Assembly (NCBI GenBank): GCA_963169625.1
Contig: CAUJGL010000561.1
Span: 1 to 17,232 of the forward strand
Length of the DNA stretch: 17,232 nt
Direction: 5' to 3'
From: Myxococcota bacterium
GTDB taxonomy: Bacteria; Myxococcota_A; Bradymonadia; UBA7976; UBA1532
The translations under genes and the position numbers were made by a program. The notes under the pieces are model-generated. The model was given only the letters and a program-made list of their open reading frames with translations. It made no database searches and had not been told where the DNA came from. Shown here piece by piece: positions 16,261 through 17,232 of this stretch (its first letter is position 1; each line of letters begins with the position of its first letter).

Positions 16261-17232
16261 TCACTTGTTGAAGGCATCACCGGCGTGTTTGAAGACATAG
16301 TCGATTCCGTTGGCCGGGTCGTTGGCCTGGCTGTGGCAGTTGGTACACATGCCGTCCATGAGATCCGGGCCGCGATCGGCGATGGCACCGGTGGCCGGGT
16401 CGAGCATGAACCACTCCCAGTCGCTCTGCTCGGGCGCGAAGCCCCACCCGCGCTTGACCATCACCGTGACCTCGATGACCGCGTCGTCGCGGAAGACCGC
16501 CTTCGCGAGCGCCGTGCCGATGGGATACCCGTGCGCGTCCGGATCCGGGCGCCCGAGCGCCTGCTTGCGATACACGACGCGATGGGTGTTCTCGTCCTGC
16601 CCGGCGTGGGCCGGCCCGAGGAGCGCACCGGGCCCGGCGATGTCGTCGATGGGCGTCCAGCTCGCATAGTCGGCGAAGTCGTCGGCGTCGATCTGCACGT
16701 CCGACGGTTTGCGGAAGACGCGGTCGTTGCCGACGTCGCCCGTCGCCGCGGCGTGGCAGCCGTTGCACATGCCCATCATCATCTCGGCCCCGCCGCGCAT
16801 GGCGATGGTGGCATCCGGCCGCAGCTCGAACCACTCCCAGTCACCGCCGCCGGGGTTGAAGCCGCCGCCGCGCTTGGCCATCGCCAGCACGCCGCCCATG
16901 GGCGCGAGCTGCTTCTCGCCTTCGGCCCACGTGAAGGTCTCCTTGACGAGGCGTGTGCCGATGGGCCATTCGCCGCCCGCGGCCTCGGCCGGATCGACGC
17001 TGCTCCAGATCATGCGCGAGAACGCGGGATCGGGCCCCATGTGCGCCGTGCCGAGCGCGGCGTTGACCGGCCCGCTGGTGTAGTCGACGAGGTACCAGCC
17101 CATGTAGTCGGCGAAGTCCGCGTCCGTAGCCTCGAACGTATCGCCCGGCATGCCGCCGCCGCCGGGCTCGCCACCGCCACCGGGCGTGCCCCCGCCGCCG
17201 GGCGTGCCCCCGCCACCGGGCTCGCCACCGCC
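16261..17232 (-). CDS. Tandem two-domain c-type haem protein (cytochrome P460 / c'-beta-like); N-terminus lies beyond the window, so the gene is 5'-partial.
   Basis: There are two homologous ~140-aa domains, each ending in a CXXCH haem motif: CNGCH at nt 16767-16753 and CTNCH at 16347-16333. Both carry the conserved 'M[AV]KRGxGF...DWEWF' block. The frame stays open through 17152-17232, encoding the linker GGGEPGGGGTPGGGGTPGGGGEPGGGG, so the protein continues upstream of the window. Confidence 0.7.
   Translation of the reverse strand, partial: GGGEPGGGGTPGGGGTPGGGGEPGGGGMPGDTFEATDADFADYMGWYLVDYTSGPVNAALGTAHMGPDPAFSRMIWSSVDPAEAAGGEWPIGTRLVKETFTWAEGEKQLAPMGGVLAMAKRGGGFNPGGGDWEWFELRPDATIAMRGGAEMMMGMCNGCHAAATGDVGNDRVFRKPSDVQIDADDFADYASWTPIDDIAGPGALLGPAHAGQDENTHRVVYRKQALGRPDPDAHGYPIGTALAKAVFRDDAVIEVTVMVKRGWGFAPEQSDWEWFMLDPATGAIADRGPDLMDGMCTNCHSQANDPANGIDYVFKHAGDAFNK
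17152..17232 (-). repeat. In-frame Gly-rich low-complexity repeat encoding (GGGG[ET]P)n, a flexible linker.
   Basis: A 15-18-nt periodic ggcggNggcgagccc / ggcggcgggggcacgccc repeat translates to GGGEPGGGGTPGGGGTPGGGGEPGGGG. Confidence 0.7.

Follow-up and report, generated by a model that had tools for sequence, protein, structure and literature searches.

Very few haem cofactors oxidise the substrate that they bind; P460 is one of them and is also acknowledged as a biological source of N2O. The known cytochromes P460 and c'-beta are homodimers that pack along their sheets, and in the P460s the beta3-beta4 loop reaches the haem of the partner subunit (PMC11928373). The P460 haem is cross-linked to a lysine (Lys70 in Nitrosomonas europaea, Lys78 in Methylococcus capsulatus and Lys106 in the Nitrosomonas sp. 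protein), at a position that is Phe or Met in c'-beta proteins (PMC11928373). Arg44 of N. europaea P460 contacts a haem propionate and ruffles the haem, and its loss abolishes cross-linking in vivo; this residue is not universal, being His in the P460 of Nitrosomonas sp. AL212 (PMC11928373). The distal pocket holds a carboxylate (Glu96 in N. europaea, Asp102 in M. capsulatus, replaced by Ala131 in the inactive AL212 protein) that is indispensable for activity in the characterised P460s, even the Glu96Asp variant of N. europaea P460 being inactive, and a capping residue is the third distal feature (PMC11928373). Here we analyse a 17,232-nucleotide stretch of DNA from a Myxococcota bacterium (assembly GCA_963169625.1, contig CAUJGL010000561.1, positions 1 to 17,232; hereafter the window), at the end of which the 3' part of a gene encodes two P460-type domains in a single chain. 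From sequence comparisons we propose, with a probability of roughly 0.6, that its product is an exported, tandem P460-type dihaem protein that binds small reactive oxygen or nitrogen species at haems that are probably Lys-cross-linked, and that it is not a nitrification enzyme.

Two P460-fold domains in one probably tethered chain

The two domains, D1 and D2 (Table 1), are ~146 residues long and share 38% identity (BLASTP E 3e-23). Each carries a CXXCH motif 16-27 residues before its C-terminal end and a block of the form M[AV]KRGxGF...DWEWF, present as MAKRGGGFNPGGGDWEWF and MVKRGWGFAPEQSDWEWF. A sequence-only reading of this DNA had described the open frame, the duplicated domains, the CXXCH motifs, this block and a Gly-rich linker, and we found all of them in place. 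It had also suggested a search with the Pfam model Cytochrome_P460 (PF16694), and this model matches two stretches of the window protein with 44.3 bits against a gathering cut-off of 27. In the Pfam scan, the class I cytochrome c models Cytochrome_CBB3 and Cytochrom_C remained below threshold and covered the CXXCH region only, which rules out a class I monohaem cytochrome c. No NCBIfam family matched the P460 protein.

A single-sequence phmmer search of the PDB gave no significant match, and a domain profile was required to reach the solved structures. We searched these with a profile (A1) of 19 single domains, which matched the P460s of N. europaea (2je2, E 1.1e-11), Nitrosomonas sp. AL212 (6amg, E 2.4e-10) and M. 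capsulatus (6hiu, E 2.4e-8), and matched c'-beta entries at just 1e-6 to 1e-4. By this sequence profile, P460s outscore c'-beta proteins by 4-7 orders of magnitude. An AlphaFold2 model made from 44 tandem sequences reached a predicted local distance difference test score (pLDDT) of 94.1 and a predicted template modelling score (pTM) of 0.89, and therefore packs D1 and D2 against each other with confidence. The best 19 Foldseek matches of this model in the PDB are all P460 or c'-beta proteins, and both domains have the five-stranded antiparallel beta-sheet fold that is found only in this superfamily, as well as its single CXXCH near the domain C-terminus. As P460 matches were found and a class I cytochrome was not, we conclude that D1 and D2 are both c-haem domains of the P460/c'-beta fold, and that the tandem dihaem protein predicted from the sequence stands.

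To place the duplication, we compared domains across the tandem proteins and observed identities of 49% for D1-D1, 50% for D2-D2 and 38% for D1-D2. As like domains resemble each other more than D1 resembles D2, these alignments indicate one ancient duplication followed by conserved asymmetry between the two domains. Six Bacteroidota-type single-domain lipoproteins (165-175 residues) score higher against D2 than against D1, and for five single-domain relatives at a greater distance the scores against D1 and D2 are about the same. Given that known P460s are homodimeric, that the D1 loop is longer and that the model packs D1 and D2 confidently, the fused chain probably forms a pseudo-dimer by itself, in which the two haem sites are not equivalent. 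By analogy with the homodimers, the beta3-beta4 loop of D1, which is longer than that of D2, may reach the haem of D2; the beta3-beta4 loops of the window protein are shorter than those of N. europaea P460. Other arrangements occur among the homologues: one protein (P0002) carries three P460 domains in a single chain, three (P0014, P0023 and P0029) have PSCyt1 or class I cytochrome c domains fused at the N- or C-terminus, and P0047 has a Por_Secre_tail of the type IX secretion system and a cytochrome domain inserted inside D1.

The gene occupies a minus-strand frame of 323 open codons that runs from position 17232 to a TGA at 16263-16261. Its GC content at third codon positions (GC3) is 0.91, as in the other genuine genes of this 70% GC window; together with the homologues, GC3 rules out a chance open reading frame (ORF). 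The gene is therefore real, and the family first assigned to it is the right one. Its 5' end, including the signal peptide, lies beyond the window, and the frame opens with 27 Gly/Pro-rich residues (GGGEP GGGGTP GGGGTP GGGGEP GGGGMP). An ATG at 17151 is internal and is not the start codon, because the frame is open further upstream, because in the best-matching homologue (P0001) this point is preceded by a signal peptide, a lipobox Cys and a linker rich in Gly and Pro, and because c-type cytochromes require export. The linker of P0001, which directly follows the lipobox Cys, is also Gly/Pro-rich yet differs from the tether of the window protein.

A lipobox of the strict pattern was found in 35 of the 43 full-length homologues, and six of the other eight have a looser signal-peptide-plus-Cys motif by eye. 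In nearly all of these proteins an Asp/Ser/Gly-rich linker follows the signal peptide and lipobox Cys. As judged from these relatives, a lipoprotein signal very likely lies upstream of the window frame, as the sequence-only reading had presumed. The missing N-terminus was not recovered from metagenome contigs: an exact 30-mer scan gave no match, a protein-guided scan gave no relative, and on a JGI contig (L083) that carries a 99%-identical SthA gene, synteny is lost at window position 10769 and the P460 gene is not reached.

Residues of the two haem pockets

To compare the haem pockets with those of known proteins, we read residue equivalences from the A1 profile alignment and counted conservation in the 44 tandem sequences. 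The family motif GT..VKE (profile GtilvKev) pairs with DGTVTVKEL of N. europaea P460, and both D1 and D2 thereby align a Lys with the haem cross-link position that distinguishes P460s in the strict sense. The cross-linking role had earlier been given to the Lys of the xxKRG sequence, an assignment that the alignment does not bear out: this Lys falls in a different column, where canonical P460s likewise have a Lys that does not form the cross-link ('SVKDSQRF' in the N. europaea protein, 'AMVKDSKRY' in that of AL212). The broader conclusion, that the domains are of the Lys-bearing P460 type and not of the Phe/Met-bearing c'-beta type, holds through another Lys than the one named. Structurally characterised cytochromes c'-beta (M. 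capsulatus 6HIH, T. thermophilus 7EAD/8BRK and N. europaea 7S5O) have Phe61 or Met79 in place of this Lys. The Arg44-type residue of P460s is also present in both domains.

The catalytic carboxylate is absent from its aligned position in both domains. In this column, two residues ahead of an invariant Met, D1 has Leu in 36/44 sequences and is never acidic, and D2 has Thr in 41/44. Two other acidic residues are well conserved: Glu227 of D2, which lies two residues upstream of the Thr on the same strand (Glu in 35/44), and the Glu of the WEWF sequence (44/44 in D1, at least 90% in D2).

An invariant His of the loop that corresponds to the distal capping loop aligns with the Pro-Phe region of N. 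europaea P460, and neither that protein nor AL212 P460 has a His there. The same His is invariant in distant single-domain relatives whose loop otherwise varies. It is a candidate for the distal base or for a sixth ligand.

Taken against the individual described proteins, the window protein is ~20% identical to N. europaea P460 (2JE2/2JE3), a homodimer with Glu96 from a nitrifying host, whereas the window protein has two domains per chain with Leu (D1) and Thr (D2) at that position, comes from a non-nitrifier and, unlike N. europaea P460, is probably lipid-anchored. The 'halfway-house' P460 of AL212 (6AMG) is also unlike it, being a soluble, single-domain protein that is capped by a Phe and has a His where N. 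europaea P460 has Arg44.

Table 1. Features of the P460 gene and of the sigma/anti-sigma pair in the window.
Feature	Coordinates	Strand	Remarks
Tandem P460-family gene, 3' part (323 codons + stop)	16261..17232	-	open frame, GC3, PF16694, homologues
(GGGGxP)n Gly/Pro-rich tether	17152..17232	-	18-bp tandem repeat; Tandem Repeats Finder: period 18, 4.5 copies, 84% matches
P460-fold domain 1 (D1)	16705..17142	-	loop from Lys strand to Met strand longer than that of D2
P460-fold domain 2 (D2)	16264..16704	-	nearer to single-domain Bacteroidota relatives
CNGCH haem c motif of D1	16753..16767	-	Cys, Cys and His invariant in 44/44 sequences
CTNCH haem c motif of D2	16333..16347	-	invariant in 44/44 sequences
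D1 Lys of GTRLVKE	16942..16944	-	aligned with haem cross-link Lys70 of N. europaea P460; Lys in 44/44
D2 Lys of GTALAKA	16501..16503	-	aligned with cross-link Lys70; Lys in 43/44
'KRG' Lys of the sequence-only reading	D1 16873..16875; D2 16453-16455	-	different column from cross-link Lys
Arg aligned with Arg44 of N. europaea P460	D1 17014..17016; D2 16579-16581	-	Arg in 44/44, both domains
Position of Glu96 (N. europaea) / Ala131 (AL212)	D1 Leu 16885..16887; D2 Thr 16465-16467	-	profile alignment
Clade-specific His, distal capping loop	D1 17041..17043; D2 16606-16608	-	His in 44/44 (D1) and 43/44 (D2)
Extracytoplasmic function (ECF) sigma factor and 97-residue zf-HC2 anti-sigma factor	10852..11764	+	Pfam; sigma about 10852-11466, anti-sigma 11471-11764 (HxxxCxxC)

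Genomic context and candidate functions

Under the reading that we favour, a lipid anchor and the flexible Gly/Pro tether would hold the protein in the cell envelope, and both haems would be Lys-cross-linked, ligand-binding P460-type sites. Their distal pockets would be non-canonical, with an invariant His and Arg and without a carboxylate at the Glu96 position. In this respect the sites would resemble those of the 'halfway-house' P460s of the AL212 type, and by analogy NO or hydroxylamine (NH2OH) would be bound and NH2OH would not be turned over. Most likely, the protein would work in the periplasm to scavenge or sense, as an enzyme, small reactive O/N species (peroxide, NO or hydroxylamine, for instance) in a setting of oxidative or nitrosative stress. 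Class I or PSCyt1 cytochrome c domains are fused to several of the homologues, which argues for a redox enzyme that works with an electron partner.

We examined the gene neighbourhood in the window and in the relatives. A convergent gene for an S8 peptidase (11963-16246, 1427 residues) ends 14 bp from the stop codon of the P460 gene, and the window encodes no second CXXCH protein and no nitrogen-cycle gene. A DNA comparison with the contig of the closest relative (L080) revealed two conserved pieces, namely the P460 gene (78% nucleotide identity) and the pair of genes for an ECF sigma factor and a zf-HC2 anti-sigma factor (76.5% nucleotide and 66% amino acid identity). This pair lies directly beside the P460 gene in L080, and in the window the S8 gene stands in between. 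Upstream in L080 is a divergent pair of glutaredoxin and AhpC/Prx genes. No shared ECF-type promoter turned up in a pattern search upstream of the L080 P460 gene and of the sigma genes, and a scan of the region around the 14-bp convergent junction gave neither a promoter nor a terminator. Glutaredoxin and AhpC/Prx or redoxin genes adjoin P0001, P0004 and P0008: the P0008 locus has AhpC/redoxin and glutaredoxin genes, and at P0004 a glutaredoxin gene and two AhpC genes are joined by genes for PSCyt1, desulfoferrodoxin and another P460 protein. Thirty genome loci supplied 187 neighbour proteins, among which the Pfam families that recur are ECF sigma (7), YceI (7), methyltransferase (4) and AhpC/redoxin (3).

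Several observations weigh against a ligand-binding role in stress defence without NH2OH turnover. AhpC/redoxin neighbours occur in just ~5/32 loci, which makes the evidence for a stress context weak, and the sigma/anti-sigma pair is convergent with the P460 gene and is not co-transcribed with it. The prediction that NH2OH is not oxidised depends on a single aligned position, and a carboxylate could come from the WEWF Glu or from Glu227 of D2. Finally, the invariant loop His could ligate the iron and give low-spin electron-carrier haems, and the haem-porin genes that neighbour 19/31 tandem loci point to electron transfer.

These porin genes underlie the main rival explanation, which we consider unlikely for the window protein: a dihaem electron carrier, periplasmic or tethered at the outer membrane and possibly with His as sixth ligand, that serves as partner of an outer-membrane cytochrome and reuses the P460 fold to transfer electrons instead of for catalysis. 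In the 19 loci (L004, L006, L008-L013, L015-L019, L023-L027 and L030; for example L017:10910-12004 and L006:11042-12172), the adjacent gene encodes a beta-barrel protein of 360-415 residues that has a signal peptide and a CXXCH at its N-terminal end, and in 16 of them it comes immediately downstream in the same orientation. At least 607 proteins belong to this family, with the motif AEPY[LF]A.R.G.KC..CH.N.TGGGKR; the barrel of its model is built of 16 strands, and general porins, OprP and OprO among them, are matched by it. Its members are named merely 'porin' or 'hypothetical', no curated model covers them and no NCBIfam family matched. The layout is that reported for the fused cytochrome-porin Cyc2, an iron oxidase, and the motif is similar, though not exactly equal, to the Cyc2-defining AXPXFAR[Q/K][T/Y] and PXL (PMC8406198). 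In other genomes a dihaem PSCyt1 lipoprotein precedes the same porin in the place of the P460 protein, and beside these PSCyt1-paired porins there is, in addition, a module of ECF sigma, zf-HC2 and S8 peptidase genes with the gene order of the window. The haem-porin gene is often followed by a YceI-like gene and a gene for a small PSCyt1 cytochrome.

The strict invariance of the loop His would suit such a carrier, and the explanation is well motivated for the porin-linked relatives. It is less so for the window copy: the window has no porin gene and, beyond the P460 gene, only 14 bp separate it from the convergent S8 gene; the closest relative, on L080, also lacks the porin. Strict conservation of both Lys and Arg would be unexpected for a simple carrier, and the potentials of known P460 haems are very low, at -300 to -424 mV (PMC11928373). 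A bolder form of the idea, to which we give a similarly low weight, is that the tandem P460 lipoproteins are the periplasmic partner of an unrecognised Cyc2-like cytochrome-porin family and form with it an outer-membrane redox module found across many phyla. The P460 haem pair, Lys-cross-linked and lined by His and Arg, would receive electrons from the porin or process a small reactive substrate that the porin admits, and the window copy would be a porin-less derivative beside a pair of genes for an ECF sigma factor and a redox-type anti-sigma factor. If true, this would give the P460 fold a role outside the nitrogen cycle.

We regard as less probable still a canonical P460 hydroxylamine oxidase, duplicated in one chain, that converts NH2OH to NO or N2O as in N. 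europaea and M. capsulatus. Both domains keep the cross-link Lys and the Arg44 equivalent, and Glu227 of D2 or the WEWF Glu could be a relocated proton acceptor. As the Glu96 column is non-acidic and the carboxylate is indispensable in characterised proteins, such an enzyme is not predicted; Glu96Asp abolishes the activity of N. europaea P460, and the AL212 protein, with Ala, is inactive (PMC11928373). The genomic context agrees with this. Neither the window nor the frequent neighbours include an amo, hao, nir or nor gene. Families of nitrification or denitrification are missing from the 25 most frequent of both neighbour sets, which together comprise 187 proteins, and amo, pmo and hao were absent from both these lists and the window, leaving no link to ammonia or methane oxidation as a source of NH2OH. 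The host lineages are, moreover, non-nitrifiers. The hydroxylamine or NO chemistry that the sequence-only reading had attached to the conserved Lys is thus unsupported, given Leu (D1) and Thr (D2) at the Glu96/Asp102 position and no nitrification genes nearby. A c'-beta-type binder of NO or CO that lacks the cross-link and keeps its Lys for another reason is very improbable, as the characterised c'-beta proteins have Phe or Met where Lys stands in 43-44 of 44 sequences in both domains, accompanied by the cross-link-promoting Arg, as neither domain combines Phe or Met with a hydrophobic cap in the manner of c'-beta proteins, and as the profile prefers P460s by the margin given above.

The remainder of the window holds several further features. 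The string of ECF sigma, zf-HC2 and S8 peptidase genes (10852-16246) recurs in the same order in unrelated genomes (L088:1120-3583 and L089:1109-3603), beside operons for haem-porins and lipoprotein cytochromes. An ORF for an SthA-like pyridine nucleotide transhydrogenase (9315-11057, minus strand) is probably over-extended; its homologues have ~470 residues and cover 81% of it, and the real start is therefore near 10733, so that a short stretch of divergent intergenic DNA lies ahead of the ECF sigma gene. Its counterpart in JGI metagenome 3300042197, the source of contig L083 (92-95% identical to the window), shares 99% identity with it. Compared with L083, the window holds an additional ~3.1 kb (4343-7440), including a 778-residue ORF (4187-6523) without a Pfam match, and beyond 10769, where the window has the sigma, S8 and P460 genes, L083 continues with genes of the EgtB/EgtD type. 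The extra DNA and the end of synteny suggest strain-level rearrangement around the P460 region.

Elsewhere in the window, a plus-strand ORF (121-1098) has the shoulder domain of major vault protein (PF11978, E 2e-27) and represents a bacterial vault-like protein whose L083 orthologue also matches Vault_3. On the minus strand, 2349-3488 encodes a Cys-rich, Gly/Asp-rich secreted protein, probably a lipoprotein (signal peptide end ...LGAC), that has no Pfam match and whose L083 orthologue has a weak match to Dickkopf_N. A 158-residue minus-strand ORF (3451-3927) has a weak, sub-threshold match to the AbiEii nucleotidyltransferase toxin (E 9e-4) and is possibly what remains of a toxin-antitoxin system of type IV.

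Distribution and meaning of the tandem subfamily

A tandem P460 protein had been expected to be unusual, and the searches do not agree. The first homologue search returned 93 relatives, ~49 of them tandem, with P0001 as the best match (75% identity). A profile search run exhaustively over 1.84 billion cluster representatives gave 2124 matches at E <= 1e-3, 384 at <= 1e-10 and 65 at <= 1e-30, and both domains were covered in ~40 of the best 150 representatives, across many phyla. Among GTDB species representatives we found ~31 tandem loci, none above 53% identity to the window protein. These lie in Geothrix, Desulfuromonadales, Desulfobacterales and Gemmatimonas; in Nitrospiraceae and a magnetotactic member of the Nitrospirota; in Cellvibrionaceae, Thalassomonas, Marinagarivorans and Agaribacterium; and in Fibrobacteraceae, Ignavibacteria, Zixiibacteriota, Calditrichaeota, Krumholzibacteriia and others. 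The host of the window copy had been called myxobacterium-like, and the named relatives of its SthA (55-66% identity) are indeed from Myxococcales, Polyangia and Haliangium.

Proteins of this kind already bear the NCBI label 'cytochrome P460 family protein'. Uncharacterised entries with two PF16694 domains (for instance P0004, P0029 of Thalassomonas sp. and L002 of Geothrix fermentans) share the tandem form, the D1/D2 asymmetry and the lipobox with the window protein, at 41-75% identity. Many such entries have extra PSCyt1 or class I cytochrome c domains or an adjoining haem-porin gene, whereas the window copy lacks a porin and is distinguished by its (GGGGxP)n tether. We found no description of tandem, fused or lipoprotein P460s in the literature, including a 2025 review (PMC11928373). 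The subfamily is thus sizeable, automatically annotated and not unique, and it is the architecture and the active-site variant of a well-studied cofactor family that are undescribed.

Matches to PF16694 serve as markers of N2O and hydroxylamine metabolism in metagenome studies (e.g. PMC12098122). Counting genes of the tandem clade as hydroxylamine oxidases would be unsafe, because the cross-link Lys and the Arg are retained in this clade without the catalytic carboxylate, and because it occurs in non-nitrifying organisms. Its members would be natural 'halfway-house' variants with two differentiated sites per chain, and as such may offer a way to probe the role of the cross-link beyond NH2OH oxidation. 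Their frequent pairing with a Cyc2-like haem-porin provides a testable lead to the function of the clade.

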